Shown: in pieces, positions 3-19,319 of the stretch
Numbering within the stretch: the first letter of the stretch is position 1
Layout of the letters: every line of letters begins with the position of its first letter
Virus record (IMG/VR): IMGVR_UViG_3300030390_001081
Coordinates: 47,151 to 67,150 of that record
DNA from: an uncultured virus (IMG/VR IMGVR_UViG_3300030390_001081)
Lineage: Duplodnaviria; Heunggongvirae; Uroviricota; Caudoviricetes
Length of the DNA stretch: 20,000 bases
Reading direction: 5' to 3' (one strand)
Program-made: the position numbers and the translations under genes
Notes under the pieces: generated by a model
Database searches by the model: none
Seen by the model: only the letters and a program-made list of their open reading frames with translations
Told to the model about the DNA's origin: nothing

Positions 3-1568
3 GAAGCAGAACGTGTATATGGACCAACTGCTAAATTGACTGAAGGAAATGGACAAGAAAGAATATCATATACAGATGAAAATGGCGTCTTTAAAGAAGT
101 TGATAGAAACATTGTTACGAAAGAAACTCCTAATTATGTTGTAGATGATCAGCAATCTGAACAAGACACTACTACTGAAGTTACTGAAGACACTACTACT
201 GAAGTTATTGAAGAAACTTCTACAGAAGTAATAGATGAACAAACAGAAACTGGACAGACAAATATTACGCCACAGCCAAGAGTAATTGATTCAGAAGGTA
301 ATGAAGTTGATAGTCCAGTTACGCCTAATACACCGTTACAACGAATTGAGCCAAAATCAACAGGGCCTATACCTATAGAGGGGGGTGAACCTGATTTAAC
401 TCGTAGAACTGTAGCTGCAGAAGTTAGTACTGATGACAGTGAACAAACTACAGAACAACAAGTAGAAGATTCAGATGCAACTGTAAATCAAACAGTAGAA
501 TCATCATCTCTTACTCAAGATCAAATAGTAGAAATATATGGACCAGACGCTAGAACATCAACTAATAATGCAGGACAAACACAAATAATTGTTCCAGGTG
601 TAGATGGAGCTGAAGACGAAATTATAAATATGCCTGATGCTGTAGCTAAAAGAGATAATAGAATTGCATTAGAGGAAGAGAAACAACAAGAAGTTAATGC
701 AAATGTCATAGGATTAAGAAGAAATGATTTAGATGGATTATCAGAAGAAGATTTAAACACTAGACTTAATCAAACAACTATACCTGATGAAGATAAAGAA
801 AATATAAGAAGCAAATGGACTAATGCTAATAAAGAAAGTTTATTAGAACAAATATTTAAAAAATACAAAAAAGGTGATGGTAATGCTCTTAAGGACGCAG
901 CATCTTTAATTAAGTCAGCTGGTGGTGTATCTTCATTGGTTGCAGGTTTTATGGGCGCTAAAGCTGCTAAAAAAGGAATGGAAGAGGTTCCTGTTCCAGA
1001 GCTTAATGGCATGACAAGTGCTTTTAAAATGTATTCACAGCAACAAAAAGCATTATCTGAAAGTGGATTGTCTTATGCTGAAAGAAGAACTATAGAACAA
1101 GGTATAGATGAAACTTATGAAAAAGGTATACAAAACCTTAGAGTAGGTACAGGTGGAGATAGAGCTAAATTTTTAGCAGGTACTGGTGCTTTAGACTATA
1201 ATAGACAAACATCTTTATTAAAAACTGCAGCTTTAGAAGATGAAGCTAGAAGACAAAATAGAGATGCTTACGGTAAGCTTTTAACGTTTGAAGCACAACA
1301 AAATAGAGATAAAGATTTGTTTACAAAATCAAGAGAATATAATCAAGATTTAGCAGATAAAGCTATGTTCCAGAATACAGCATCTTCAGCATTTAAACAT
1401 GTATTTGATAATATTAGATTTGGACAAGATTATAAGCCTTTGATGGATCAAATGAGTATTTTAGCAACTCAAATATCTGGGGTTAGTGGTCTTGTAAATG
1501 ATATTAAAACAGATGAAACATTAAGTAATAACATTGAAGCAACTGATCCAAATGAAACAAGAAATTAA
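3..1568 (+). CDS. Virion ejection/cargo protein, 5'-truncated (acidic disordered N-part, Gly/Ala-rich amphipathic segment, helical C-part)
   Basis: The frame of track ORF 36..1568 is open from base 3 (EAERVYGPTAK precedes the TTG at 36), so the true start is probably upstream of the window. E/T/Q-rich low-complexity N-half; AASLIKSAGGVSSLVAGFMGAKAA at 897-968; Q/A/E-rich helical tail; TAA at 1566-1568. Lies two genes upstream of the virion RNAP, where crAss-like phages carry cargo genes. Confidence 0.6.
   Translation, partial: EAERVYGPTAKLTEGNGQERISYTDENGVFKEVDRNIVTKETPNYVVDDQQSEQDTTTEVTEDTTTEVIEETSTEVIDEQTETGQTNITPQPRVIDSEGNEVDSPVTPNTPLQRIEPKSTGPIPIEGGEPDLTRRTVAAEVSTDDSEQTTEQQVEDSDATVNQTVESSSLTQDQIVEIYGPDARTSTNNAGQTQIIVPGVDGAEDEIINMPDAVAKRDNRIALEEEKQQEVNANVIGLRRNDLDGLSEEDLNTRLNQTTIPDEDKENIRSKWTNANKESLLEQIFKKYKKGDGNALKDAASLIKSAGGVSSLVAGFMGAKAAKKGMEEVPVPELNGMTSAFKMYSQQQKALSESGLSYAERRTIEQGIDETYEKGIQNLRVGTGGDRAKFLAGTGALDYNRQTSLLKTAALEDEARRQNRDAYGKLLTFEAQQNRDKDLFTKSREYNQDLADKAMFQNTASSAFKHVFDNIRFGQDYKPLMDQMSILATQISGVSGLVNDIKTDETLSNNIEATDPNETRN
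165..236 (+). repeat. In-frame 24-bp tandem repeat, 3 copies (DTTTEVTE / DTTTEVIE / ETSTEVID)
   Basis: gacactactactgaagttactgaa (165-188), gacactactactgaagttattgaa (189-212, 1 mismatch), gaaacttctacagaagtaatagat (213-236, degenerate). Confidence 0.9.
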
Positions 1569-1586
1569 GTTTAATATAATAGTAGT

Positions 1587-3809
1587 ATGGCCGAACAAAA
1601 AGACGCAGCAATAAATATGATGGGACAGTCACTGTTTTCAGGTGACGCCTACAATCAAAGACAGCAAAACTTTAATATGGCTTCTCAAGCTTTGCAAATG
1701 CAAGCTCAAAGACAGCAAGCTAATAATGAGCTCAGTGGTGCTGTAAGAGATAATTATGAGCAAACTGTAACAACTGCTAATGCAGCAGCTGTTAGACCTT
1801 ACGATAAAAAAAGATTAGATACTATATTAGGTGGTGGTTATGAAAGAGTTATAGAAGACATAAAAAATAACTATAATGGCGATTTCATGACTTATTCTAA
1901 TAGTATAGATGCAAGTGGAGTTAGTGGAGCAGATAAAATTAGAAATATATTTTTTAATGATGACTTACAAGGTTTATATCAAGAGTTAAATCATAATAAA
2001 AAACAGTTTACTAAAATTATAGATTTACAAAAAAATAATAAATCACATTTAATACCAAAAGCTTATTCTTTAGCTTTAGAAGAATGGCAACAAAATGGAC
2101 CTACAGACTCTAAACCAACTTTATCTAGACTGCCAACATTTTATCAATTACAAGATCCAAGTGCAGCTTTAGAAGAAAAATTTGAAAGTATAGGTGGTAA
2201 TTATGGCGCTAATCCAGAAGATATTTTAGAAGTAGCTAGTAAAGAAATAAGTCATAATATGTCTTTAGAAGGTTATACTAAAGATGAAATGGAAGTAATT
2301 AATAGAGATTTAGCTTTAGGTAGAGGTCCAGGATATGATGCTGCTATAGAATTTGTAAAAAACAATCATCTTACAAGTGGAATGGTAAATCCTCAAAGTA
2401 CTGATTTTATTAGTGGAAAACTTGAATATGGTAAAGGTGATATAATAGTACAAGTAGCAGATGAGCTAAATGAAGAATCATATAAAATATATGCTAATGA
2501 GGATTACAAATCTATAGTTAAAGGTGTTAACACAATTTCTGATGGATATGTAAAACAATTACAAACAATATCTAGTGCAAAACAGACACAGTTACCATTC
2601 GAAAATTTAGGTCCTTTAAGAGGTAAAGGTAAAAGGATAGTTACAGGTGGTGTTTTATATGACAATAGCGCTGATATGAAAAATATATTAGAATCTACTT
2701 TGCCTGGATACGAAACTGAAATGGGTTCTGAATTTGGATTAAATAATGGACAATTAGTTTTAGATAATTATAATTTTTTAAAACACGGAAATGTTTACCA
2801 TGCAGATAGTGGTACTTTATTAGGTGGCGATGAATTGTTTGACGCAGTTGATGGTTTGACTGTTGCAGCTGGATTTGGATTAGCTGGTGCAGGAGCTGGT
2901 TCTGTTACAGGTCCAGGAGCAGTATTTACTGGAGCTGGAGGATTTGTTGCTGGTGCATTAACTTATGCTTCAACAACTGAATTAAATGCATTTAAAGATT
3001 TCACTATAGACAAAATAGTTTTAGGATATAAGGTTAATATGGGTAATGGTGAGTATGAATTAATGTTAGATTTTGAAGACAAAGGTGATGGTGACTTTAA
3101 AGAATATATGAAAAAATTTGATTTTGATGGGTCTGATAGTTTAGCTGGTACTGTAGAACCTGTACATTTAGCTTATGGTAGAGATCAAGATCTAACATTT
3201 TCAGATGGTTATTTAATTGAATTAAATTTTAATGATAGTGCGGTTGAAAAAATAAAAACTGCATATTCAGGAGAACGAGGTGAATTTGATAGAGTTATTA
3301 AAGAAGGTATACAAGGATCAAAAGGATATAACTCTAGTATAGAAGCTCAAAAATTAAAAGCAAATAGAACTGTTGCTAATGTGCAAAAAGCACAAACATT
3401 TGTAAACAATATGTTTGGAGATAATCCTGAAACAGTAAATAACATACAAAATACTTTTGGTCAACCATTACAATTATATGCTAAATCAGCGAATATACCT
3501 GAAATAAAAGGTAAAGAAAATCAAAGTTTATTATTAGCAGAAATTCTTGTATCTTCGCAATACTTTAAGGATGATAATGGTAAGTATAGCAAAATAAGTG
3601 ACGATAAAGGAACAAAAATAGCTCAAGATGCTTTTAATAAAATACAAGGTATAGGAGGTATGATGTCACAAAATAAAGCAAAACTTTCTATGTATCAATC
3701 AATGAAAACGCAAGACATTCTTAAAGGTTTTACTTCTTTTTATTCAGATGATATGATAAAAGATATGAAACAATTAACTATTGCATTAAGAGATTTAAAA
3801 GGATTATAA
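1587..3809 (+). CDS. Virion ejection/cargo protein with Gly-zipper hydrophobic hairpin (740 aa)
   Basis: Long ORF with ATG start and TAA stop. Q/A-rich N-terminal helix; uncharged GLTVAAGFGLAGAGAGSVTGPGAVFTGAGGFVAGALTYA at 2853-2969 (aa 423-461); stop is 1 nt from the start of the giant RNAP gene. Confidence 0.65.
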   Translation: MAEQKDAAINMMGQSLFSGDAYNQRQQNFNMASQALQMQAQRQQANNELSGAVRDNYEQTVTTANAAAVRPYDKKRLDTILGGGYERVIEDIKNNYNGDFMTYSNSIDASGVSGADKIRNIFFNDDLQGLYQELNHNKKQFTKIIDLQKNNKSHLIPKAYSLALEEWQQNGPTDSKPTLSRLPTFYQLQDPSAALEEKFESIGGNYGANPEDILEVASKEISHNMSLEGYTKDEMEVINRDLALGRGPGYDAAIEFVKNNHLTSGMVNPQSTDFISGKLEYGKGDIIVQVADELNEESYKIYANEDYKSIVKGVNTISDGYVKQLQTISSAKQTQLPFENLGPLRGKGKRIVTGGVLYDNSADMKNILESTLPGYETEMGSEFGLNNGQLVLDNYNFLKHGNVYHADSGTLLGGDELFDAVDGLTVAAGFGLAGAGAGSVTGPGAVFTGAGGFVAGALTYASTTELNAFKDFTIDKIVLGYKVNMGNGEYELMLDFEDKGDGDFKEYMKKFDFDGSDSLAGTVEPVHLAYGRDQDLTFSDGYLIELNFNDSAVEKIKTAYSGERGEFDRVIKEGIQGSKGYNSSIEAQKLKANRTVANVQKAQTFVNNMFGDNPETVNNIQNTFGQPLQLYAKSANIPEIKGKENQSLLLAEILVSSQYFKDDNGKYSKISDDKGTKIAQDAFNKIQGIGGMMSQNKAKLSMYQSMKTQDILKGFTSFYSDDMIKDMKQLTIALRDLKGL

Positions 3810-3810
3810 T

Positions 3811-6800
3811 ATGGGATTTGATTTAAATGAGTTCTTTCAATCACAGGTTAAAGGAGCTAGAGGTGGTTATCAACAAGCACAAGATGATTTAAAACAAGAT
3901 GTAGATAATTATGATGTAGGTGGGCCTATGGATGCTAATCCTGGAGAAGATTTTTCTATATCGCAAGGAGATATATCTGCATCTGCATTACAGCAAAGAA
4001 CATCATTTAGAACTACGGGTAGAGGTTCTGGATTTCAAACTCCAGAAATGATTATACCTGAAGATCCTAATGTGCAAGGAGCAATAGATCAAGATAGATT
4101 TTTAAAACAATCTATGACAAGAACTGAAGACATTGCAAGATCTGAAGTTTCTAGATTACAAAGATCACTTATAGCAGGTAGTGGACAAGTAGTAAGTATG
4201 GTAGGGGATATATTTAATTTTCTACATGCAATAACTCCTGATACAGGAGAAACATTTGAACCATTTGAAACAGTAGGAACATTCTTAACAAAGCATGGTG
4301 ATAAAACTATGAATGAGTATAAGAATACTTATATACCAGAAGAATTAGAAACGATAGGTGTAAATGATATGTTCAATCCTACTTTTTGGACAGGTGATGT
4401 AGCTCAACAAGTACCAAATTTTTTATCTATGCTTACTCCTGGTGTACTAGGTACTAAGCTTGCAAGCAAAGGATTATTAAAATATTTACCAAAATATACA
4501 AAAGCATCGAGAGGATTTTTAGATGATACTGTCGGTGTTGTAACAAGAACAAAAGGTGGTCTTGGTAGTTTAACTCCTATTATTAATGTAGGAATAGAGG
4601 GTGCAGATGATTTTATATTATCTAGATCAGGTAAGGCTTTATCTGCTTTTCTTGGTGGTGGTATTGGTACAACTATGGTAGATGGAGCTACAATAGCAGG
4701 ACAAACATATAGACAGGGATTACAAGTAGGTTTAACAGAAGAGGAGTCTTCTGTAGCTGCCGCTAATGTATTTGGAAATAATTTTGCATGGGCAGGTATA
4801 AATGGTATATCATGGGGATTAACTTTTGGTGGAGTTAGATTAGCTCCTGTCAGAGGATTAGTCAATAAAATGCCTAAGAATACTTTTGGTAAAACAGTAT
4901 CTGGTATATTGCAAAGTAGAATTACCTCTGGAATAAGTAAAGCAGGATTAGAAGCTGTAGAGGAATCATTCCAAGAAACTTATCAAGATTGGGTGCAAAA
5001 AAGACAATTAGCAAAAGCTCAGGGAATACCATTTGAATATGATGGAGATTATTTATACCTTAGTTCAGGTTATGCTGAATATTATAATAGTCCTGAAAAC
5101 AATAGAACAAAATATGTAGCTGGTGCTACAGGTATATTAGGTGGAGGATTTTCATCTATTATAAATGACACTGCAAAGCAACAGCTTGCTATGGACAGAC
5201 AACGTGAGATTTTAGAACAAAATCTTGATTTGTTAAATGATAATAGTAGAACATCTAGATTAGCAGTTGTAGACAACGTAGTAAAACATTCTGTAGAATC
5301 TAGAGAAACAGGAGAGTTAACAGCTTATTTACAGCAACAATTAGACAAGGGTATTATAGATCAAAAATTATTTGATTTTTATACTAACGTAATAAACTCA
5401 TATGAAGAGTTATATAATAGAATACCAGAATATATAGAAGAAACAGAAGGGTTTGGTAAAGAACAGTATTTTTCTAATTTAACTTTAGTAGAAAGAAATA
5501 AGAATGCATTAAAATATAGTGAGGAAGAATTACAATCTTGGAAAGATGCTAATAAAGATTCAGAAGGAACTAAAGGTTACAATGAAGTATTAGCACAAAA
5601 AGAAGGTGAGCTTGCAGAACTTGCAAATGAACTTGAACAAGCTAGCGCAAAAGCTCGTGAAATAAACTTAGGTATAGAGCAAGAAATACTTACTGAAAAT
5701 AGAAAGTTTAAAAAAGGTGTTTCTGTTACACCTGAAGGTAAGTTAACAAGAGGTGAAGGTAAAAAAGTTGGAGGAAAATTTGCACCTGAAAGTAAGTTAG
5801 ATCAAGAACAAAAAGAAGATATACTTACAAAAGAAGCAGAAAAAAAACAAGCAAAAGAAGAGTCGAAAGAAAGCGAAAAAACAGAAGAACAAACAGAGGG
5901 TGAACCATCTGTAGTTAAAAGAGTAGTAGACAAAGCAGGAGATATAGCTCGTAAAACAGGTGAAAGATTAGGAATAGTAAGTGCAAAAGAAGAAACACCT
6001 GAAACAACTCCTACAGAAGAAACAACACCAGAAGTAGCTGCAGAATCAAAAACAGAAACAAAACAACAAGCTTCAGAAGATGTGTCTGTATCTAAAGTTG
6101 CATCTAAAATTAAAACAGGAACTTTATCTCCAGAGAATGTTAGAACACAAGATAAAACTGATGTTGACGCTGCAGTTAAAAGTGTTGCGCAAAAATTAGA
6201 TAGTGGTGTTACTGCAGATAAACTTACTGAAAATGAAAAAACTATTGCAATTGAATTTGCACAAGAGGTAAGACAAGCGCGTAAAAAAAAAGTAGAAACT
6301 AAGACTAAGAGTAAGACAAAAACTGAAACTAGTCAAAAGTCTAAACCTAAACCAAGAGATAAAAAAGGTAAAAAGTCTAATTATAAATCAGCTAATCAAG
6401 CTGTAACTAAAAACCTCAACTTTAGATTAAGAAATGCTAGAATAGCAAACACAATGTTTATACAAGATAAACTTGGAATTGCTGTTGGTGTAATAGACTC
6501 TTCATACAATCACTTTGGTACTACTCCCGCATACGAAGTAGCTGGAGCAATATTTGTAGATCCAAATAAACTATATCAAGAATTATTTGTACACGAATAT
6601 ACAGGACACATTTATTTTAGAGCAAATCAAGATAGTCCACTTATAAAAAAGTTTATACAGGAATATGCTAATTCTAACGAATATGCTGCTATGAAAGGTA
6701 GGTATCCAGAATTAGAAATGTTTACCTATAATGGACAAGAACTTACATTGTCAGAAATATCACAAGACTTACACGAAAGGTCTTTTAATAAAGATGATAA

Positions 6801-9800
6801 TTTTTATTATGCAGAGTTAGAAGCAGACTTACAAGCTCTTATAGATATAGTTGATGAAATAGCAGCTAATGAAACTGCAGGTGCTTATGAAGGTACAGGA
6901 GTTACAAAACAAATAGAAGACTATGCTGAGTTAAAAAGAATGTTACAAGAAAATAAACTTGTAAAAGAACTTAAGCCACAGCAACAGATGGCACTAATGG
7001 AAGAAGGTTGGGCTACATATATTTCTGATCCTGACAATCCTAATACAAGAGAAGACGCTAGAAAAATATTTGATGGATTAATGGAGAATCCAGAAGAAAA
7101 CAAAAAACGTAAATCAAGAATAAAACGTTTTTGGAATATTGTAAGTAAACAAGGTAAGTCTATAGAAAAAGAAGCTACTACAACACTACAAAGTAAAGAA
7201 GGATTAGCTGGACTATCTTTAGATGAAATTAAAAGCAGACTTACTTCTGATATGCTAAGAATGACTCCAGAAGAGGTAAGACAAGGTAGAGCTACTAGTT
7301 CTAGAAGAATGAACTACAAGCCTAATAGAAGTCTTACAGATACATCTGTATTTGAAAATGAGTTAGCAACTAATGTATATAACGAGCTTGTTAACAATCC
7401 TAAACTAATAAAAGAATTTGCAGAAAGATATAAAGACAACCCATCTGATTTATTACAAGACGAAGAGTTTATAAATGTAATAGTAGAAAGTATGACTCAG
7501 TTGTCATATCAATATGGTGTGCATAACAGGTTTGCTGAAGCTATAATATACAATACTAAAAAATTATCTAAACTTAATAGAGAGGTAATTGATTTACAAA
7601 AGAAAATAGATTCTGCTACTAATTTAGATAGTAGAAGAGAGTTTGTAAAACAAGCTAAATTTAAAAGAGCACAATTAGTAAAAGCAGCAGCTAAAATACA
7701 ACCTAAAGATATAGATACAACAACTATACAAATGGGTGACAATAGTATGAGTGTAAGAAACTTTGCACAAGCTATTGCATTTAAAGTAATGAATCGTAGA
7801 GGTATTAACTCTGCATTTAATAAATTTAATGCTCAAGTATCTAAACTTTCTAAAGATGCTACTTTATCAAAAATAGAAGAAACTTTTAATAATGCATTAA
7901 AAAAAGAAGGTTTATCTGATTTACAAATAGAAGGACTTGCTAGCGAACAATTGCGTGTAGTTATAGACGAATATGAAAAAGTATTTGGTTTAAACTATCA
8001 TGGATTAGATGCTATTACTGATATAAATGAATTAGTAGACTATAGTGATAATATACTTAATATCTACAATAAAGATAAAGATGAGTTGTTATCTGGTTTA
8101 TCATCATTGATGATGGACTTTACTAGAGTTTATATGCAAACTGAAGAGGCGCAGTCTAAAAAGAAAACATCTAGACAACCTTATGTAAAACAAAAAGCTT
8201 TGGGTGCTATGGCAATCATATTGCAAACAGCACAACAACACAGGGGTGACTTGCAAGGATTTATAGGATCTATAAGGTCTAATAAGAATAGCTCTGTAAG
8301 AGCATTTTTAAAGTATTTAGAAGATAGATTACAAGTAGAAGGTGTAAAGTATAAGAAACCACTACAGTTACTTAGAACTAAAGAGAGATCTGGAGTTATG
8401 AAAAGTTTAGCAGATCACTTGTTAACATCTGTGTGGATTAACTTTAGCAACAAAACTAACGAACAAATATTTAATACAGTACAAAGAGGTAATGATTCTA
8501 CACAAACAAATGATTTAGATTTATTTAATGAAGAAACAACTGCAAGTGAAGAAAGAGCTTTAGTTGCAAGAGTAATAAAAGAAGGTGGCTTTATATTTAA
8601 CCAGGGTAAAGATGGAGCAAGAAGACGTAGAGATGTAGCGTTTACACAAAAAATGATAGACGCTATACGTGGACTTAATGAAGATAAGTCAACTACATTT
8701 CAAGATGCCGAGTCTATACTTATGGAAATGTTTGATGTATATGGAGGTAATTATTTCTTTTGGAATACATTAGAGCAAACTGGTGTAGTAGATGGTAAAA
8801 ACAGAATATCATTAAATGATTGGTTTAAAAAGAATGAAAAGAAAATAATTAAAGCTTCTAAAGATCCTAAGATAGCTGTAGATGTCTTTGCTCCTGTATT
8901 GCAACAAGCAGCATTAAACAGTAGAGTATTCTATTACTTTACTATGATAAAGAATGCAGAGGGTAATCCATCAAATACTATGAATAGTCGTAGTTTTATT
9001 ATTAATCAAAATGAAAGACTAAATGAGTTTTTTACAAGAAAGGATAATGAAACAGATCAAGAATATAATGATAGAGTTTTTGATAGAGCGAAAGCATTAA
9101 GAGATATTTATGGCGATAATGCATATCTACCTTTTGAATTAAAAACAATAGATGGTGTATTTACCGTACAGCCAAAACAAAATGTATTAAAATTTAGAGG
9201 CGGTCTTATATCTCAGTTAAACAATAAAGGTTTGAATTATGTTAGACTTACACCACAAGAACTTATGGTTAGTGAGATGACTGACTTTATAAGCGCTTTA
9301 GGTAGACGTAGACAAACAGACTCTGATGGTAATATAGTTGATACTACATATATGCAGCAAGTAGGTGTATTTGCTGAAAAAACAAGAATGTACTATGTAG
9401 AAACAAAGTTGTTAAAAGACACACAAATTAAAGAAGAAATAGATTTAAGACTGTCTGAATACGTAGGACAAACATATCAAGATGGTAAATTAATATTACC
9501 ATTTATAAAATCTAAAGGTAAAAAAGCTGTTATAGATGAAGTATATGTAAATAAACAAGTAAGGTTATTAGGTAATCATATTAATAATAATTTACATTTA
9601 TATAAAGACAATGTAGATTTTCAAAATTTATTTGATGGCAATAAATTAAATGCACAAGGTAAAAAAGCTTTGCGTACATACATTCTTAATTATGGAATAA
9701 ATAGATTCCAGGCACAAAGAATGTTTATTGGGGATCATAAACAATTTAAAAACGAAACTGATTATGTTAAGCGTAGTGCAGGTGCTATAGCTAGACAAAT

Positions 9801-12800
9801 GCCCACTGATATAAATCAAAAGGTAGATCTACTAATATTGAAGGATCAAGAATTAGATGGAGATAGCGAAATGGATGCGCAAGGATATATGTTGCAAGAA
9901 GATGCAGACATAGTAGGAAACCAGTATGGTTTAAACTTTATGCGTAATGATTTTGAAACTGCTAGACATTTTAAATATGTTTATTACGGACAAGATTTAA
10001 GAGAGGATGCATTAGTTAATAATGTATTTGGTCCACATTCTGCAATGTACGCTAAAGCAAATGTAATGTCTATTACTAAAGATATGGAAAATAAAAATCC
10101 ATACTTAGCTAGCGTAGCAGAATTATTACGTGCTCGTAAAAAAGATTTAACTAATAGAAAAGAAAACTATCAAGTAGTAGCTTATCAAGAATCAGCTATT
10201 AAAACAGCTCCTTTTAAGTTAGAAGACTACACTATTAACTTAGACAATACAACTAGTTCTGGTGTTAATGCATTATATGAAATGCAGATAAAAGAACAAT
10301 ACGATAACTTGTACTCTAACGAAGAAGGCTATGTTGGATTAGATGGACAAAACTTTGGTGTACAACTTATATTAGATAAAGAAAAGTTTACATCACCAAT
10401 GGCCGCACAGTCATACTCACAACACCTTACTAATACTACGCCTGAAACTGAATTACTTGCACAAGGTGCACACCGTGCAATTGCAAGAGCTATGCAGTAT
10501 CAGTTGGAGGAATCAGGAGTAAAGAAGTATTATAATGTAGATGAATATACAGAGTCAAAACAAATATCTCTTAACAAGTCTTTGTTAGACAAGATAAGTT
10601 CTAACTGGGCTGGTAATCCTACTGCAAACTTAAGTGAATATGCAAGTCCATTTTTTCCTAAGTTAAATGTATCACGTAACTCTATATTAAATAAATTAAT
10701 TGTTGAGGTAGGTACAAAGGTAACAACACCTGGTACAATTGCATTTCAAGTAACTCCATATGGATATAACCTAAAATCATTTACAACTCTTGGAGCATTA
10801 AAAGAATCTGCTGCAGATCAAAATGAAAGAAATACAATAGACAAGTTAATTAATAAGTATGATAGTAACCTTACAGTTTCTGAAGTTATACTACCATATA
10901 ACATGCAAAAAGATTATAATGTAGGTGATATTATATTGGGTAGTAGAATACCTTCACACGCAAAATCTACGCAACCTGTATTAGTTGTAAAAGACTTTTT
11001 TGATAGAGATGCTGGTAGTATAATTGCTGTAGGTACTAAAGTATCTAAAGCTATGGGATCTGACCTTGATGGTGATGCTATTTTTGTAAATGGTAGGTAT
11101 GTTAAAAAGAATTTAAAATTATCTGAAACTGCATACAATAGAGCTTTTGATAATATAGTAAGTTTAAACGGACATCCTGCACATCAAGCAGAAGCATCTG
11201 AATCTATTGAATTTGAGGATACGGCAAAAGATGCTTTAAAGTTTTCTGAAGAAACATTAGGAAGAAAGCAAGATAGTTTTGCAGAAGAGTCTAGTCAAAT
11301 GATGCCTATAGGTATGTTAAATGCATTTAATGAAAATGTACCTGCTGGTGGTATGATTGGTATAGCAGCTACTATGCAAAGAGATTTAAATTATTTTGCA
11401 CATCACAATGCTGAGTTAGACTTTAGCGTAAGAATAAATGGTGTTGAAAGAAATAAAATAACAGATGATGGAGGTTTAACTTATTTACAAACAGCAAAAG
11501 TTTTAAACATTATACTTGATAATCCTAAGTATCAATATGCAAGAAAGTTAGGGTTTACATATGAAACAATTAAAACTGCAATGCTGTTGTTAAGAATGGG
11601 TTATAGTTTTAATGAGGTAGCTACAATACTTAATAGTCAGGGTGCATTAAAGTATGGTAAGTACGCATCAGAGAGAACTGTTATTAATGTAAATGATATG
11701 TCATACTATACGCCTGGACAAAAGGCTATGGTAGAATACTATGAAAGCGAAAACAATAATAAAGAAATAAATAGCTCTATAGAGTTCTTATCAAGAAAAC
11801 AATCGCCATCATTATATGTTAGACAAAACATTGATCCTCAGTTAAAAGTAGATAAAGGTGGTGTAATTAATCTTGACTTTAGTGATGTACAAAGCAACGA
11901 GTTTAATATGCAAGTAGTTAAGCTGCTTGATAATTTAAATAAAGTTGGTACAGAAGTGTTTAATGCTGGTAGAATTATTGGTGCATATGGTTTAACTATG
12001 CAGAATGGATTTCAAGTAGATAAACTTATATCAGACTTTAATAATGTAGGTTCTAAAGATTCTAGATTTATAGAAGGCCCTATAAATAAATTAAAAGCTG
12101 ATCCTATTATACAGCATAATATTAAAGTTCTTAATAAAATAAAAGAATTAGATCAAGAAATTAATACACAATATAGTACAGAAGCTGTAGCCGTACAAAA
12201 AGAAATAAATAAAATTGTTAGCTCTGACCAGCAAAACATATTTGAAAGTCATCCTATAGCTGTAAGACAATATCAATTATTTAGAATGCAACAAGACCTA
12301 TCTGTCTTACAAGATATGCCATCTATTGATGCATTGTTTGCTCAGATTGAACAAGTTAAACTAGAAAACGATAAACTGCCATATGAATTACAAAACAGAT
12401 TTATTGCTGATGGTATAATTTTAAACCCTGAAACAAAGTCTGTGTCTTTAAATAGTAGATTTGTTGATTCTAATATACCAGAGTCTGATTTATTTGTATT
12501 ACAAAGACACTTTGATTTATTAGATCAAAATAGAGGCATAGGAGCATTTGATGTTGCACCAGGTACACCAAGAATAGAAGTAGAAAGAGTAGAAAATGAA
12601 GATGGTTATATTCCTAAATATGCTGACTTTACTACTGATTTAAGAAAGACATTTATACAAATGGATTTTTTACAAAATGGCTGGATAGGTTCATCTTCTA
12701 CCTCTGTATTGTGGAGTCCTAATACACATGGAGTTGATTTTAAAATAAACCAAGAACTAAATAACCTTATACTTGATAACAAGCGTACAGTTACTAATGA

Positions 12801-15720
12801 AGAAGCTAAAAGTATTGCACTAAACTTTTTAAAAGATTATTCTTTTAATGCTCCTTCTGTTACTATGAGAGAAAGCGATATATCAGAAGATGGAACAGTA
12901 TATGTTATAGCTGGTTTCCCACCGCCTGTTGTAGATAAATTACAAAAAGAAAATACACAACACGTTGTAAAGTCTTGGGATAACACAGATAAAAAATACA
13001 GAACTTTTGAATATGTAGATGGTAAGTATTATTTAATTGGTGAGTCTAAGTTTAATCCTAAAACACAAGAACAGCATAATAGAAATAATAAAACTAAAAC
13101 ATTTAAACAAGTTACTAGAAAAGCAGTTGATAGAACTTTCTTTGCTAAAAGATCTAATAAAGGTAAATACAAAGGTGCTAACGATGTATCTGACACTATA
13201 ACTAATAGAGCTGAACAATCTGGTATACCTACTAAAGCATTATCTAAAGATGCTTACTTTCAAATTAAAGGTTTGTCTTCTCGTAACAGAACTATTTCTG
13301 CTGGTACTGAACAGTATTATAATAAAATGTATGAGAACTATGTAGATCAACATCAAGATTTATATGATACATTGTATTTACCAAATATTAAAACTAACAA
13401 ATACAAAGAAATGTCTGAAGGTGAATTAGTTAGCATTTCTGTTGACCTAATTAATTTTGATAAAGTATTATATAATCAATATATAGAATACATTGGCGTA
13501 GAGCTTACTGAAAGAATGGAGAAAGAGCAGATAGCAAACATTGCTAAAGTAGCTAACAAAAATAATATATCTCTTGTAGGTAAAGATTTGGGCGCTTGGG
13601 AATCTTGGCTTATATCTAATAATTTAAAACAAACTAATCCTGAAGTACAGAACATTATAAGAAAACTTCAAAATGATTACATGAAGTTTGTAAAAGATTA
13701 TAGACGTGAAGCTATGATAATATCTAAATTAGAAAAACAGATTAAAGATAATAGACTATCTAATCTTACTAACTCACAAATGGTTGGACTGTTTCTAAAA
13801 GGAAAGCTTAATGATTATATATATAAAAATTTATATAAAACAAAAGTAAACGCAGATGGTAGAGAGTTTATTGTACTTAGATCTGAAGAAGAAATAAAAG
13901 GTTTACCTCAATATGAAATTGAGTTTTATTTTAAGTTTAAAGATATGGTGCAAAAATATAGTCCTGGTATTGATGAATCATCTATACCTTACAAGTCTAT
14001 GTCTGGTATACCTTCATTGGCTAGACACGGTTTATTAGGATTATACAAATCACAAATAGGTAGTACTTCTGATTTAAATAATATAAAAGTATTAGGAGAG
14101 TTGCCAGATGGAACTACAGAGATAAGAACATTTGCTGAGTTTAAAACATTGTATGAAGCTAAAACAAAAGATTCTTTATTGAATAAAGCTAAAAATATTG
14201 TAAGATTAGAAAAAGTTCGTAAGCGTGCTGTAGCAGCATCTAAAAGAGGAATGAATGATGATAAGACTCCTATAATTTTAAATAAAGCAGAGAGAGCTAC
14301 AATGACTGATAGCGATATATTCTACAATATGATTGACAATAAAAATGTTAGTGTGTCTGAACTTGGTTCTAAAGACCTGGGCGATATACTTAAATCATAT
14401 GTTCATAGTAATATGTTTAAACATGGATCACAAAGATTTAGACAAGATTATTTAAATACAGTTAATGTTATTACAGATAAAAATGGTAAAAAGTATTTTG
14501 AAGAAACTTATCAACAATGGGCAGTTAGAAACGAGAAAGATGATTTCTTAGGGATGCAGTCTTACTTACCATTAATTGATGGAGCTATAGCACTAAACAA
14601 GCTTAAGGGTAATGACAACATGGTTGATTACTTACAGGAAGTTTGGAAAGATAATATTATAGGTGGTAAAAAACAAAAAGCATTTAAAGGTCCATTTGAT
14701 TGGGCTGTAAATAAATTAGTAGATTTAACTACACTATCATATATTGGTTTAGATTCTTCTGTTGTTATTGGTAATGCTGCCATGGGTAAGTATACATCTT
14801 TACGTGCTAAAGGTGGTAAAGAATTTATAAGTGGTGAGAAAAGATTTTGGCAAGGTTTTCTTGGTGGACAAGAATCTGTAAAAGATAAACTTACTCGTGC
14901 TAAAAAGTTAGAGTTTGGTTCTACAAATAAAACCTCAGCTATGTTGAATGAATTATTTAAGTTTGAATACTATCAGTATGAGGATATATCTGCAGTACAC
15001 AAACAAAATCCTTTGTTTAGACTTGCTTTATGGCCAATGGAACAATCTGAAAAATGGATACAAGGTGTAATGTTCTTTGGACAAATGTCACAAAAACAAT
15101 GGAACTCGTATGATGCTGATGCTGATGGTAATTTATTAGTAAAAGCTGTAGATGGTAAGTTTTATAAATACAGTGATTTAGAATTAAGTGATGTTAGTGA
15201 AGATGCATTAAGTATAGATCGTATTAATCAGATAGTATTTGATGTAAAAAAACAACAAGGATTTGGTTACTCGCCATTAGATCAACGTAGATTATCTATG
15301 TACTCCTGGGGTAGAGCTTTAGGACAATTTAAAAAATATTTCTTTTCATTAAGTAGAGAAAGATTTGGATCTGAAAATATAGACATGTATGGTAATGCGG
15401 ACGTAGGTACTTATCGTGCAGCATTTGAATATACTAAAGATATGTATCAAGGTAAAAAAGATTTTAATGATTTTAAAAAGTTACCTAAATACAAAAAAGA
15501 TGCAATAATAAGATATGTAAGAGGTGTGGCTGTTACGTTTGCAGCAATGTTAGCATATGGATTATCATCTGAAGATGATGATAGTATTATATCAAATCAG
15601 ATTAATAAAACTGCACACGCAAGAATACAAGAACAAAATATTTTCTTTAATCCAGAAAGATTAAAATTTATGGCTACACCGCCAGCAGTGAATTTTGTTT
15701 CGGATAGATTAGGATATTAA
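3811..15720 (+). CDS. Giant virion-packaged protein: two-barrel (double-psi beta-barrel) DNA-dependent RNA polymerase fused to a zincin-like metalloprotease and ejection-type domains (3969 aa)
   Basis: Catalytic DxDGD as GSDLDGD (D2418-D2422, nt 11062-11076), with the RxP motif GSRIPSH 39 aa upstream (R2379, nt 10945). Motifs resembling those I recall from crAss-like vRNAPs: FIGDHKQFK..DYVKR (9724-9774), DAQGY (9874-9888), IGIAA (11356-11370), ILDNPK (11512-11529). HEYTGH at 6592-6609 with EEGWA at 7000-7014. Confidence 0.88.
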   Translation: MGFDLNEFFQSQVKGARGGYQQAQDDLKQDVDNYDVGGPMDANPGEDFSISQGDISASALQQRTSFRTTGRGSGFQTPEMIIPEDPNVQGAIDQDRFLKQSMTRTEDIARSEVSRLQRSLIAGSGQVVSMVGDIFNFLHAITPDTGETFEPFETVGTFLTKHGDKTMNEYKNTYIPEELETIGVNDMFNPTFWTGDVAQQVPNFLSMLTPGVLGTKLASKGLLKYLPKYTKASRGFLDDTVGVVTRTKGGLGSLTPIINVGIEGADDFILSRSGKALSAFLGGGIGTTMVDGATIAGQTYRQGLQVGLTEEESSVAAANVFGNNFAWAGINGISWGLTFGGVRLAPVRGLVNKMPKNTFGKTVSGILQSRITSGISKAGLEAVEESFQETYQDWVQKRQLAKAQGIPFEYDGDYLYLSSGYAEYYNSPENNRTKYVAGATGILGGGFSSIINDTAKQQLAMDRQREILEQNLDLLNDNSRTSRLAVVDNVVKHSVESRETGELTAYLQQQLDKGIIDQKLFDFYTNVINSYEELYNRIPEYIEETEGFGKEQYFSNLTLVERNKNALKYSEEELQSWKDANKDSEGTKGYNEVLAQKEGELAELANELEQASAKAREINLGIEQEILTENRKFKKGVSVTPEGKLTRGEGKKVGGKFAPESKLDQEQKEDILTKEAEKKQAKEESKESEKTEEQTEGEPSVVKRVVDKAGDIARKTGERLGIVSAKEETPETTPTEETTPEVAAESKTETKQQASEDVSVSKVASKIKTGTLSPENVRTQDKTDVDAAVKSVAQKLDSGVTADKLTENEKTIAIEFAQEVRQARKKKVETKTKSKTKTETSQKSKPKPRDKKGKKSNYKSANQAVTKNLNFRLRNARIANTMFIQDKLGIAVGVIDSSYNHFGTTPAYEVAGAIFVDPNKLYQELFVHEYTGHIYFRANQDSPLIKKFIQEYANSNEYAAMKGRYPELEMFTYNGQELTLSEISQDLHERSFNKDDNFYYAELEADLQALIDIVDEIAANETAGAYEGTGVTKQIEDYAELKRMLQENKLVKELKPQQQMALMEEGWATYISDPDNPNTREDARKIFDGLMENPEENKKRKSRIKRFWNIVSKQGKSIEKEATTTLQSKEGLAGLSLDEIKSRLTSDMLRMTPEEVRQGRATSSRRMNYKPNRSLTDTSVFENELATNVYNELVNNPKLIKEFAERYKDNPSDLLQDEEFINVIVESMTQLSYQYGVHNRFAEAIIYNTKKLSKLNREVIDLQKKIDSATNLDSRREFVKQAKFKRAQLVKAAAKIQPKDIDTTTIQMGDNSMSVRNFAQAIAFKVMNRRGINSAFNKFNAQVSKLSKDATLSKIEETFNNALKKEGLSDLQIEGLASEQLRVVIDEYEKVFGLNYHGLDAITDINELVDYSDNILNIYNKDKDELLSGLSSLMMDFTRVYMQTEEAQSKKKTSRQPYVKQKALGAMAIILQTAQQHRGDLQGFIGSIRSNKNSSVRAFLKYLEDRLQVEGVKYKKPLQLLRTKERSGVMKSLADHLLTSVWINFSNKTNEQIFNTVQRGNDSTQTNDLDLFNEETTASEERALVARVIKEGGFIFNQGKDGARRRRDVAFTQKMIDAIRGLNEDKSTTFQDAESILMEMFDVYGGNYFFWNTLEQTGVVDGKNRISLNDWFKKNEKKIIKASKDPKIAVDVFAPVLQQAALNSRVFYYFTMIKNAEGNPSNTMNSRSFIINQNERLNEFFTRKDNETDQEYNDRVFDRAKALRDIYGDNAYLPFELKTIDGVFTVQPKQNVLKFRGGLISQLNNKGLNYVRLTPQELMVSEMTDFISALGRRRQTDSDGNIVDTTYMQQVGVFAEKTRMYYVETKLLKDTQIKEEIDLRLSEYVGQTYQDGKLILPFIKSKGKKAVIDEVYVNKQVRLLGNHINNNLHLYKDNVDFQNLFDGNKLNAQGKKALRTYILNYGINRFQAQRMFIGDHKQFKNETDYVKRSAGAIARQMPTDINQKVDLLILKDQELDGDSEMDAQGYMLQEDADIVGNQYGLNFMRNDFETARHFKYVYYGQDLREDALVNNVFGPHSAMYAKANVMSITKDMENKNPYLASVAELLRARKKDLTNRKENYQVVAYQESAIKTAPFKLEDYTINLDNTTSSGVNALYEMQIKEQYDNLYSNEEGYVGLDGQNFGVQLILDKEKFTSPMAAQSYSQHLTNTTPETELLAQGAHRAIARAMQYQLEESGVKKYYNVDEYTESKQISLNKSLLDKISSNWAGNPTANLSEYASPFFPKLNVSRNSILNKLIVEVGTKVTTPGTIAFQVTPYGYNLKSFTTLGALKESAADQNERNTIDKLINKYDSNLTVSEVILPYNMQKDYNVGDIILGSRIPSHAKSTQPVLVVKDFFDRDAGSIIAVGTKVSKAMGSDLDGDAIFVNGRYVKKNLKLSETAYNRAFDNIVSLNGHPAHQAEASESIEFEDTAKDALKFSEETLGRKQDSFAEESSQMMPIGMLNAFNENVPAGGMIGIAATMQRDLNYFAHHNAELDFSVRINGVERNKITDDGGLTYLQTAKVLNIILDNPKYQYARKLGFTYETIKTAMLLLRMGYSFNEVATILNSQGALKYGKYASERTVINVNDMSYYTPGQKAMVEYYESENNNKEINSSIEFLSRKQSPSLYVRQNIDPQLKVDKGGVINLDFSDVQSNEFNMQVVKLLDNLNKVGTEVFNAGRIIGAYGLTMQNGFQVDKLISDFNNVGSKDSRFIEGPINKLKADPIIQHNIKVLNKIKELDQEINTQYSTEAVAVQKEINKIVSSDQQNIFESHPIAVRQYQLFRMQQDLSVLQDMPSIDALFAQIEQVKLENDKLPYELQNRFIADGIILNPETKSVSLNSRFVDSNIPESDLFVLQRHFDLLDQNRGIGAFDVAPGTPRIEVERVENEDGYIPKYADFTTDLRKTFIQMDFLQNGWIGSSSTSVLWSPNTHGVDFKINQELNNLILDNKRTVTNEEAKSIALNFLKDYSFNAPSVTMRESDISEDGTVYVIAGFPPPVVDKLQKENTQHVVKSWDNTDKKYRTFEYVDGKYYLIGESKFNPKTQEQHNRNNKTKTFKQVTRKAVDRTFFAKRSNKGKYKGANDVSDTITNRAEQSGIPTKALSKDAYFQIKGLSSRNRTISAGTEQYYNKMYENYVDQHQDLYDTLYLPNIKTNKYKEMSEGELVSISVDLINFDKVLYNQYIEYIGVELTERMEKEQIANIAKVANKNNISLVGKDLGAWESWLISNNLKQTNPEVQNIIRKLQNDYMKFVKDYRREAMIISKLEKQIKDNRLSNLTNSQMVGLFLKGKLNDYIYKNLYKTKVNADGREFIVLRSEEEIKGLPQYEIEFYFKFKDMVQKYSPGIDESSIPYKSMSGIPSLARHGLLGLYKSQIGSTSDLNNIKVLGELPDGTTEIRTFAEFKTLYEAKTKDSLLNKAKNIVRLEKVRKRAVAASKRGMNDDKTPIILNKAERATMTDSDIFYNMIDNKNVSVSELGSKDLGDILKSYVHSNMFKHGSQRFRQDYLNTVNVITDKNGKKYFEETYQQWAVRNEKDDFLGMQSYLPLIDGAIALNKLKGNDNMVDYLQEVWKDNIIGGKKQKAFKGPFDWAVNKLVDLTTLSYIGLDSSVVIGNAAMGKYTSLRAKGGKEFISGEKRFWQGFLGGQESVKDKLTRAKKLEFGSTNKTSAMLNELFKFEYYQYEDISAVHKQNPLFRLALWPMEQSEKWIQGVMFFGQMSQKQWNSYDADADGNLLVKAVDGKFYKYSDLELSDVSEDALSIDRINQIVFDVKKQQGFGYSPLDQRRLSMYSWGRALGQFKKYFFSLSRERFGSENIDMYGNADVGTYRAAFEYTKDMYQGKKDFNDFKKLPKYKKDAIIRYVRGVAVTFAAMLAYGLSSEDDDSIISNQINKTAHARIQEQNIFFNPERLKFMATPPAVNFVSDRLGY
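6592..7014 (+). other. Zincin-like metallopeptidase motif region within the giant protein (HExxGH ... EExxA)
   Basis: AGAIFVDPNK-LYQELFVHEYTGHIYF gives a beta-strand followed by a helix carrying HExxxH (H928); a downstream helix LMEEGWA (E1064) could supply the third Zn ligand. This layout is typical of metallopeptidase domains in phage polyvalent/ejection proteins. Confidence 0.7.
9721..11529 (+). other. RNA polymerase catalytic core (both double-psi beta-barrels plus bridge/trigger-like elements) within the giant protein
   Basis: Ordered motifs GD....K...D..KR, DAQG, HFKYVYYG, YAKAN, KVTTPG, RIP, DLDGD, IGIAA, ILDNPK. Boundaries are approximate. Confidence 0.8.
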
Positions 15721-15746: not shown

Positions 15747-16112
15747 ATGGCAAATACAAATGACGTAAATGGTGCAGCACTAGGTAAATATGGTGTAGCT
15801 TATATGGATACAACCGATTTATTTACACCACCAAATGGTATGGTGATTGTAGCTATACAGTTTCTTGCACAAAATACTTTAAATACTTTAACGTCTTTTG
15901 ATACTGATTCTGGTACTAGAAGGTATGCGAATACTGCTAATGCAGCACATGCAGCAGAGGATAATTTAGAAGGAAAAAATGGTGCGCAGTTAGACAATAC
16001 TGCTATATTTCCAGTAGGAACAATTATTTATGGTAGATGGAGTACTGTAAAATTACAAACTGCAGATTCTAATGGAGGTATATTAATTTATTTATCACCA
16101 AAAGGTAGTTAG
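15747..16112 (+). CDS. Small beta-rich hypothetical protein, possibly virion-associated; paralog of 16544..16912
   Basis: 121 aa, A-rich leader, TAG stop. Shares MAN..D...A.LG.YG, M...AI..LA and FP.G..I.GRW..V.L blocks with 16544..16912. Confidence 0.75.
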   Translation: MANTNDVNGAALGKYGVAYMDTTDLFTPPNGMVIVAIQFLAQNTLNTLTSFDTDSGTRRYANTANAAHAAEDNLEGKNGAQLDNTAIFPVGTIIYGRWSTVKLQTADSNGGILIYLSPKGS

Positions 16113-16543: not shown

Positions 16544-16912
16544 ATGGCAAATAATACAGATATATATAATGCAACGCTTGGTCAATATGGATCATCGTTT
16601 ATTACAGGTGACGGTGGAACTGTCGATTTAAATGGTACTTCATCAACAATGTTTGTAATAGCAATTACAATGTTAGCTGATACAACATTTCAGAACTTAC
16701 AAACTTATAAAGGTGAGATAAAATCTATAAGTACAGTTACAGCTGAAAATGATCATGATGCAGAATTTGGTGCAGCATCAAATGCTACTGATATTACTAC
16801 ATCACACACTTTTCCAAAAGGTGTAACAATATTTGGAAGATGGGATTTTGTAGAACTTAATAGTGGAACTTGTGTTTGTTATTTTGCACCACAACCATTT
16901 AATGTGTCGTAA
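16544..16912 (+). CDS. Small beta-rich hypothetical protein; paralog of 15747..16112
   Basis: 122 aa; same conserved blocks as 15747..16112; its stop overlaps the next start (TAATG). Confidence 0.75.
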   Translation: MANNTDIYNATLGQYGSSFITGDGGTVDLNGTSSTMFVIAITMLADTTFQNLQTYKGEIKSISTVTAENDHDAEFGAASNATDITTSHTFPKGVTIFGRWDFVELNSGTCVCYFAPQPFNVS

Positions 16913-17955
16913 TGATAAAAACAATACTATATATTTGTTTAGCATTTTTTTGTGCATTATCAAGTATAACTGTTGATGCGCAAATAAAAAACCTATATAA
17001 ATTTTCTACATTTTATATTGCTGCAAATGGAGGTACTTCTTTGTCAGATCGTAACATATATAATGTACAAGACATACTTACTACTGCTACAGAAGAAACT
17101 CCTTATGATTATTCTTTAACTGCAGGCATTAGAAAAATTAAAAGATTTCAATACGAACCTACCAGTCCTTTTAAGGATGGTACAGAAACTACATATAGTG
17201 ATGCAGCTACTATAGGTTTATCTCCGTTTGAATTTTTATTTGAAATAGACTACAGAAGACAAGAAGGTATAGAATACATAAATCAAAATCATTTTTTACG
17301 TTATGTAAAACCAATATGGTTAGCTAAAGCAGAATACATTCTTGATGGTTTTGCTGATGTTGAATATTATGAAACAACACAAAGATTAAGATTAAGAGGT
17401 AATAAAAAACTATCATTTAATTTAGGAGCTATACAAAGAATATCTGAACCCTATGGATATGATCCACTAGAAGAATGGATATTATCTAATGGTAACTTAC
17501 ATTATACATACTTAGCAATACAAGAAGGATATACTATAGATGTATATGATAATCAATATATAGATCCACAAGGTAACATTGTAGCAACAAGTTCAGCTGT
17601 GTGGGATGAGGTAGTTATACCACAAGTTTTATCAGATTATGTAGAAAGTAAAAGAGATGAACTTACAAACCAATGGGTACACTCTATTGTTTTGGGTTTT
17701 GATTATTATACATACAAAAAAAATGCATGGTTACATGTATGGGGTAATTTTATACCTTATCATTACAATGATGGAGGTGAATACTCTTATCATAACTTTA
17801 ATGATGGAGAACAATGGTACGACTATTCTGGTGGTTTAATATTTGGTTTGAAAATTAACAAACATTTAGGTACTTTTGTAGAAGGAAAATATCATAAGTA
17901 TTGGAATAGAGAATGGTATGATTTTAAATTTGGAATAAATTATATAATATTTTAA
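16912..17955 (+). CDS. Putative outer-membrane beta-barrel protein with Sec signal peptide
   Basis: N-terminal signal MIKTILYICLAFFCALSSITVDA|Q; about 12 amphipathic aromatic-rich strands (e.g. FEFLFEIDYRR, WLHVWGNF, LGTFVEGKYHKYW); last strand WYDFKFGINYIIF ends in Phe, matching the BAM beta-signal. Confidence 0.75.
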   Translation: MIKTILYICLAFFCALSSITVDAQIKNLYKFSTFYIAANGGTSLSDRNIYNVQDILTTATEETPYDYSLTAGIRKIKRFQYEPTSPFKDGTETTYSDAATIGLSPFEFLFEIDYRRQEGIEYINQNHFLRYVKPIWLAKAEYILDGFADVEYYETTQRLRLRGNKKLSFNLGAIQRISEPYGYDPLEEWILSNGNLHYTYLAIQEGYTIDVYDNQYIDPQGNIVATSSAVWDEVVIPQVLSDYVESKRDELTNQWVHSIVLGFDYYTYKKNAWLHVWGNFIPYHYNDGGEYSYHNFNDGEQWYDYSGGLIFGLKINKHLGTFVEGKYHKYWNREWYDFKFGINYIIF

Positions 17956-17956
17956 A

Positions 17957-18232
17957 ATGGCAAAAGAACTTAACGAAGAAACAGGGTTCAATATAAGTGT
18001 AAAAACATTAATAGGCATAGGTTTTGCTATGGCAACTATAATTAGTATGTGGTTTGTTTTACAAGCTGATATAGCAGAAGCTAAAGAACTTCCTAAGCCA
18101 GAAATTTCTAAGATGGAATTTAATATGAAAGATGTTAATATACGTCAATCTATTAAGAACACAGAGAAAAATGTGGAAAAGTTAGAAGAGCGAATGATTC
18201 GCATGGAGGACAAAATTGATGCATTAAGATAA
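17957..18232 (+). CDS. Single-pass membrane protein with C-terminal coiled coil
   Basis: 91 aa; hydrophobic LIGIGFAMATIISMWFVL, then a Pro linker (ELPKPE) and heptad-like IKNTEKNVEKLEERMIRMEDKIDALR; stop overlaps the next ATG. Confidence 0.75.
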   Translation: MAKELNEETGFNISVKTLIGIGFAMATIISMWFVLQADIAEAKELPKPEISKMEFNMKDVNIRQSIKNTEKNVEKLEERMIRMEDKIDALR

Positions 18233-18585
18233 TGAAAAAGATAGCAGAATGGAAGATATTTGGAATGTACTTGTTAGTATTATTTTTATTGTTAGCCTCA
18301 CATACTGCTTTCTCTCAGGTAAAAGTGATACACTTTAATGCTGATTTTAATTCAGCTAATGATGTAGCTTGGTTCGTGAAATTAAATGAATGTGATAGAC
18401 AAACGCTTTTGATAGAGCAAAATGATAATCAAATTAAATACGAAATAGCTATTGTACCAACAATAATAGTGTTTGATGACGGTAAAGAAGTAAAAAGATT
18501 TCAAGCAGACATAAGTTTTAAAATGGCTGCCACAAGAAAAGAAGTACAAGAATATATTGACGAATTAATAATAAGCAAATTTTAA
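18232..18585 (+). CDS. Exported thioredoxin-fold protein lacking CxxC
   Basis: Signal peptide ending TAFS|Q. VIHFNADFNSAN occupies the position of Trx 'vdF.A.WCxxC'. YEIAIVPTIIVFDDGKEVKRFQ matches the Trx cis-Pro 'y.i..vPT...f..G.ev.r..' signature. The mature chain has only one Cys. Confidence 0.75.
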   Translation: MKKIAEWKIFGMYLLVLFLLLASHTAFSQVKVIHFNADFNSANDVAWFVKLNECDRQTLLIEQNDNQIKYEIAIVPTIIVFDDGKEVKRFQADISFKMAATRKEVQEYIDELIISKF

Positions 18586-18586
18586 T

Positions 18587-19318: not shown

Positions 19319-19319
19319 A

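Follow-up and report, generated by a model that had tools for sequence, protein, structure and literature searches.

Lineage-specific tags at the module seams of a fused crAss-like virion RNA polymerase polyprotein as candidate cleavage sites for its built-in zincin

Introduction

In the crAss-like phage phi14:2 the cargo proteins gp67, gp66 and gp65 are three chains, whereas the uncultured phage studied here encodes three modules resembling them, in the same order and with the polymerase fold shared (PDB 6VR4), within a single chain of 3969 aa. This raises the question of how such a chain might be taken apart, at which positions and by which enzyme. Fusion, likely cleavage and MPTase autoproteolysis have already been proposed in print, and the sites at the seams between modules were not found among what is printed. 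The phi14:2 preprint (bioRxiv 10.1101/2020.03.07.982082) calls the fused “single huge polyprotein” of other crAss-like phages “likely cleaved”, presents the zincin as a possible activator, and states both polymerase activation and the zincin target to be open; no named cleavage sites were found in its accessible text. For the MPTase domains of phage polyvalent proteins, N4 vRNAP and P1 DdrB, autoproteolysis either in the head or post-injection has been proposed (PMC5512222), and the accessible part of that paper yielded no cleavage-site motif, the phrase “cleavage site” appearing once, in the reference list. The terms zinc, protease, cleav, fused and polyprotein do not occur in the accessible text of Yutin 2021 (PMC7886860), nor do “cleav” or “proteol” in that of the main text of PMC10172136. 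No paper naming seam motifs or showing cuts in crassvirus cargo was returned by our literature search, which covered mainly the main texts of freely available papers.

A cysteine-free polyprotein combining the crAss-like cargo modules

The polyprotein is encoded on the forward strand at 3811..15720 of the window (the whole stretch of DNA analysed, 20,000 nucleotides in length) and contains no cysteines. The 67-kb contig carries crAss-type capsid, portal, terminase, ring and muzzle genes, with matches to the Pfam families Crass_capsid (E 3e-34), crAss_MUZ (E 5e-131), CrAss_Ring_1 and CrAss_Ring_2 and to PHROG terminase and portal families, and by these genes the phage is classified as Crassvirales-like. 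Because the genome also encodes a T9SS sorting domain, a Bacteroidota host may be supposed; relatives come from marine metagenomes (Tara labels). Upstream, after the muzzle gene, lie two further cysteine-free ORFs on the same strand (3..3809), one of 877 aa cut by the window and one of 740 aa, which by the gene order of crAss001 are probably the smaller cargo proteins.

Searches of the whole 3969-aa protein against Pfam and PHROGs gave nothing informative, phmmer and profile searches of PDB sequences gave no relevant match, and tblastn with aa 831-3230 found no match among cultured phages. The module order is N-module, zincin, RNAP and C-module, the first and the last two being identified by profile alignments and, for the RNAP, a structural model. 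The N-module (aa 1-857; 3811..6381) is homologous to phi14:2 gp67, with aa 153-396 aligning to gp67 119-362 (hhalign 94.7%, E 6e-8), and ends in a variable linker rich in Lys and Glu. Within the RNA polymerase module (aa 1169-3119, 1951 aa; 7315..13167), aa 1956-2620 pair with gp66 862-1662 (hhalign, 97-98%), and a model of aa 1965-3160 matches 6VR4 (Foldseek E 4e-21), followed by QDE-1/RDR2. The predicted catalytic loop, DLDGD (aa 2418-2422; 11062..11076), is retained as DxDGD in 98/98 homologues. Together, the model and alignments identify the middle module as a crAss-like virion RNA polymerase of the gp66 type, with a single-chain two-barrel fold. Its packaging in the virion and transcription of early genes would follow from homology and from the position of the gene after the muzzle gene. 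The C-module (aa 3120-3969; 13168..15720) shows homology to the C-terminal part of gp65 (aa 3634-3929 versus gp65 977-1321; hhalign 88.8%, E 2.5e-6). Besides the fusion itself, further differences from phi14:2 were apparent: the zincin heads the gp65-like part there and precedes the RNAP here, and phi14:2 has a DFDID loop and cysteines where the present protein has DxDGD and none. Across the wider group, the loop has the canonical DxDGD form in all 98 family members, versus DFDID in phi14:2 and DFDVD in crAss001. Also identified were four proteins of 2038-2359 aa (L075, L076, L078 and L081) possessing a central HExxH and a related C-module, lacking cysteines and any DxDGD-type match, which would seem to be polymerase-free cargo fusions.

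From three protein searches, together with three viral-contig scans, 109 full-length homologues were collected, 98 of them distinct, of 3508-4151 aa and forming 23 clusters at 50% identity; this set excludes sequences shorter than 3400 aa and those truncated by the end of a contig. Among four matches to a zincin-region search of 50% representatives, one (P0012) was dropped as an unrelated repeat protein. Another sequence, P0011, is 100% identical and stops at residue 1171, at the second seam; since it lacks a contig record and a sibling fragment (P0018) begins in mid-domain, it is probably the product of a cut contig rather than of a natural split. P0013/P0028, L016 and L042 appear to be copies damaged by frameshifts or breaks.

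A predicted zincin conserved throughout the family

Between the N-module and the polymerase lies a predicted zincin of MPTase type, defined by an HExxxH motif (aa 928-933; 6592..6609), in which E929 is the predicted general base, and by a Glu pair (aa 1064-1065; 7000..7005) predicted to supply the third zinc ligand and kept as [EDQ]E in 98/98 homologues. The zinc motif takes the form HExxH in 84/98 homologues and HExxxH in 14/98, the latter variant having been described for MPTase domains in the accessible text of PMC5512222. Both forms occur among near relatives, e.g. P0006 versus P0007. Zinc ligands and general base are retained in all 98 homologues, so that the sequence signature of MPTase domains, an HExxH/HExxxH helix with a downstream Glu, can be recognised in every one. 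As described in the same source, MPTase proteins resemble the present one in carrying this zincin-like arrangement within a giant injected protein; N4 vRNAP differs in its T7-like polymerase class and, despite a similar domain, is reported there to be packaged uncut. The zincin fold was not recovered in the model: fold searches found no metalloprotease, returning generic helical bundles only (best Z 6.5), but the strand region of the model has pLDDT<50, which put the three-stranded sheet and flanking helices of a zincin beyond the reach of such searches. Atlas neighbours are unnamed phage proteins, including one cluster with 18% LPD23, and the zincin of crAss001 gp47 gives a weak profile match (E 0.07). 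Zinc-dependent proteolysis is a predicted activity of this domain.

Tyr-Lys sites at the three seams of the query protein

The original prediction was that a Tyr-Lys motif following a basic run marks three candidate self-cleavage sites at domain boundaries. The three sites lie where they had been placed, at Tyr858-Lys859 (tag 6361..6405; Tyr codon at 6382), Tyr1169-Lys1170 just past the zincin (7291..7332; 7315) and Tyr3120-Lys3121 after the RNAP (13147..13188; 13168), all on the forward strand, and the pattern [NK]YK[SPGA].?N has exactly these three matches in the whole protein. Sites 1 and 2 bracket both parts of the zincin motif (928-933 and 1064-1065), and sites 2 and 3 bracket a gp66-type segment including DLDGD. 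By colinear extrapolation the ends of gp66 would fall near aa 1095 and 3140, such that the piece from seam 2 to seam 3 would span roughly the extent of gp66; cutting at all three sites would yield pieces of 857, 311, 1951 and 850 aa. All three sites sit at module seams, in coil with pLDDT<50 next to ordered helices, with the caveat that both structure models end close to the Tyr-Lys sites, which lowers confidence in the coil there. A Pro follows Lys1170 and restricts the possible position of a cut.

Three matches to the pattern were found in 0/5000 shuffles, the pattern having been drawn from these same sites. When no pattern was imposed, the best triple of 5-mers in the three seam windows of the query was exactly the Y858/Y1169/Y3120 set, at p=0.33 against shuffled windows and p=0.21 against random windows, and 1438 five-residue triples drawn from the entire protein do equally well or better; within the query alone, therefore, the motif does not exceed chance. 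In two relatives, P0002 and P0003, the pattern-free best triple again comprised the same sites (p=0.049; 40 shuffles).

Relatives at 77-96% identity retain Tyr-Lys at all three sites, with synonymous codon changes. Conservation at ~77% depth does not by itself single out these sites, because 8/14 Tyr-Lys pairs of the query are invariant among such relatives, i.e. five others besides the three. Sites 1 and 2 are conservation peaks at this identity, with 12/13 and 12/14 residues invariant, respectively, versus 60% overall, and at site 3 Tyr-Lys-Gly is retained, with synonymous codon changes, while its flanks change. Details of the proposed pattern nonetheless fail at site 3, where Arg precedes Tyr in 4/4 close relatives (P0001-P0004), three of which have also lost the trailing Asn. 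In a 10-row alignment (A1), K1170 is invariant.

Several related lineages carry their own tags at the seams

Across the wider family the literal motif did not hold: [NK]YK[SPGA].?N occurs at any seam in 0/17 outside clusters, and Tyr-Lys is present at all three seams in only 9/98 homologues. Tyr-Lys is lost in P0005-P0009 (29-43% identity), being absent from all seams in P0005-P0007 (41-43%) and represented by Phe-Lys at seam 3 of P0009. Yet it is present again at all three seams of P0107, P0108 and L033, which are 23-24% identical to the query.

A different tag was identified in a 38-member sister clade that shares ~23% identity with the query, in which [KR][AP][KN]K occurs at seams 1, 2 and 3 in 36/38, 30/38 and 37/38 members, respectively, versus at most 7/38 at any other place, with 3.6 occurrences per protein against 0.9 expected. 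This pattern was picked after inspection, and a pattern-free analysis was therefore run on the whole sister-clade alignment. With five columns, the seam triple ranked first (11.83, compared with 11.64 for the best of 12 column shuffles); with four columns it ranked second and 3/12 shuffles scored better, and with six columns, run without shuffles, it was also second. A fourth tag candidate in this clade (P0010, residue 3371) was rejected as a seam since the helix containing it is conserved throughout the family. Hand counts further indicate that the seams keep their position relative to conserved landmarks: in the query, P0005 and P0010, seam 2 falls ~60-64 residues past the Phe that closes the zincin, and ~28-34 residues separate seam 3 from the conserved Gly that follows it (query, P0009, P0010 and P0107). 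Seam 1 is less fixed, lying ~70 residues before the zinc motif in the query and ~110 in P0010.

When the seam-window test used above for the query, with its shuffled-window and random-window controls, was applied to one representative of each of the 23 clusters, in windows chosen after the seams had been seen, 8/23 passed both controls at p<=0.05, 2/23 passed one and 13/23 passed neither. Four of the eight passing clusters belong to the sister clade and share its tag, and hence are not independent; L030 has a match at two seams only, and those passing neither control include the query's nearer relatives P0005, P0007 and P0009. The tag itself differs among P0107, P0112, P0114 and the sister clade, reading Ala-Arg-aromatic-Lys/Ser-Leu in P0114/P0115 and Gly-Arg-Ala-Lys/Ser-Lys in P0112, and P0008 carries a basic or acidic residue followed by Ala-Lys-Leu. 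The lineage tags share a basic run followed by a small or aromatic residue and, in most cases, by Lys. Beyond the two main clades, patterns of this kind show ~2-3x enrichment at seams 2 and 3, although counts are small, with hardly any or no enrichment across outside clusters at seam 1, the least enriched. A shared tag thus recurs at all three seams in some distant relatives, whereas a family-wide Tyr-Lys motif is not supported. In the sister clade and some other lineages the tag is a lineage-specific feature of the seams, of which Tyr-Lys is probably the query lineage's version.

Split cargo proteins suggest a disulfide-linked counterpart

The distribution of cysteines offers a comparison between split and fused cargo. 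In phi14:2, cysteines occur at residue 1797 of gp67, residues 3 and 2179 of gp66 and residue 3 of gp65, and nowhere else in these proteins; crAss001 and three other split loci show nearly the same terminal pattern. Among the split cargo loci as a group (L011, phi14:2; L012, crAss001; L071, L077 and L079), cysteines are found almost only at facing ends, and 92/98 fused chains have none. This suggests that split cargo proteins form a head-to-tail disulfide chain. An end-to-start disulfide of this kind, Cys1715-Cys5, joins gp27 and gp26 in the pre-ejectosome of cyanophage A4, according to the accessible text of PMC12002296. The ejection proteins of this cyanopodophage are joined in the manner that the terminal cysteines of split crassviruses suggest; there the link is a chemical one between separate proteins, whereas here the modules are joined through a peptide bond, and a protease would be required to break it. 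In crAss001, three RNAP-associated cargo proteins, gp47, gp50 and gp49, were found in virions (PMC10172136, accessible text). There gp47 ends 184 aa after its HExxH, like the N-module plus zincin here, and the core of gp50 can be aligned (97%); for gp47 and gp49 the profile matches fall below 30%, their correspondence being by motif order only. In contrast to the single cysteine-free chain, these are separate genes with terminal cysteines. Taken together, terminal cysteines in split cargo and their absence from most fused chains suggest that the cargo is ejected as one chain and dismantled later.

Proposed mechanism and competing explanations

We propose that the packaged cargo, i.e. the gp67-like module, zincin, gp66-like RNA polymerase and gp65-like C-module, forms one chain in which a short basic peptide at each seam would act as a recognition tag for the built-in zinc protease. 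Cutting by the zincin would separate the modules and free a polymerase of ~1950 aa. Each lineage would have its own version of the tag, basic-Tyr-Lys in the query lineage and basic-Ala-Lys-Lys in the large sister clade, with enzyme and sites drifting together to give lineage-specific tags. The cut would most likely be made post-ejection, once the chain has been threaded into the host and the zincin has folded and bound zinc. Because the tag recurs at the joints and, from one lineage to another, switches at all of them in concert, a single phage-encoded reader is suggested, and the zincin is the candidate since it is the only endoprotease-like domain found among 62 ORFs. The alternative of a head protease, also raised in the original prediction, gained no support: Pfam and PHROG scans of the 62 ORFs revealed no prohead protease, the sole peptidase match being M28/M42-like and located in the replication block. 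Protease activity, the zincin as reader, the scissile bond and the timing are what we infer from these patterns, and we give about even chances to lineage-specific tags being cut by the built-in zincin, probably after ejection.

The tags might instead be real and remain uncut, serving as docking or handling signals that order the packing and threading of the ejected chain, for example as basic peptides binding DNA, the portal or the tail, or the zincin cleft as pseudo-substrates. Seams 1 and 3 fall in the top 1% of 25-residue windows for net positive charge, in keeping with such a role, and in N4 vRNAP the HExxH domain is required for encapsidation without cleavage (PMC5512222, accessible text) and the domains are modelled as still linked post-ejection (PMC13434306). 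However, a fixed order of four to five residues at three places, switching at all seams between lineages, is unlike a plain charge patch, and the general base is retained in 98/98 homologues; we consider docking fairly unlikely. A sceptic could also regard the three Tyr-Lys sites of the query lineage as a chance pick from Lys-rich linkers, with the real tags decayed or elsewhere. The p values of 0.33 and 0.21, the 1438 equally good triples, the equal conservation of 8/14 Tyr-Lys pairs and the lack of Tyr-Lys at any seam in P0005-P0007 (41-43%) all favour this account, but it must contend with the pattern-free recovery of these sites in the query, P0002 and P0003 (p=0.049 in the latter two), the alignment of site 2 with an invariant Lys, the conservation peaks at sites 1 and 2 and the sister-clade tags at the same seams, and we judge it unlikely.

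Cleavage of the tags by another enzyme, either a host protease specific for basic residues or a phage head protease that escaped recognition, appears more improbable still. The target of the zincin would then lie elsewhere, e.g. in peptidoglycan or a host protein, and peptidoglycan digestion has indeed been offered as a zincin role in the accessible text of the phi14:2 preprint; moreover, the zincin is retained in split phages, in which there is no fused chain to be cut apart. Against this stand the lack of a prohead protease match among the 62 scanned ORFs and the lineage-specific tags, for which a reader encoded by the phage would be a better match than a host enzyme common to all.

For cleavage by the zincin, the terminal cysteines of split relatives make release after ejection seem likelier than maturation inside the virion. 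Release after entry is the simpler option because, if split phages rejoin their modules for ejection, cutting in the head gains nothing. On a broader and more tentative reading, fused chains would carry a cleavage code that drifts with the zincin, be ejected whole and cut themselves in the host, activating the polymerase, as a counterpart of the disulfide chain of split crassviruses. As part of this possible but not favoured scenario, the fusion peptide bond and the head-to-tail disulfide could be two interchangeable ways of achieving ordered ejection as one thread, followed by release. The seams provide precise targets for mutagenesis and define the termini to be sought, and clades with different tags make specificity testable by swapping. 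If cleavage by the zincin is correct, similar reasoning could be used to predict where other injected phage proteins with an MPTase domain are processed.

Other features of the contig

None of the ORFs scanned at genome C1 8109-26691 could be recognised as a DNA polymerase or primase; this is a region where a 482-aa ORF without a family match lies beside a DnaB helicase. Directly after the polyprotein are two small paralogous ORFs (15747-16112 and 16544-16912) with 30% identity and no family match. The contig has the same four-gene block at each end (16912-20000 of the window and 789-3073 of genome C1), with 53-83% protein and 70-87% DNA identity between copies, which may reflect either duplication of the block or the joining of sequences from two related phages.
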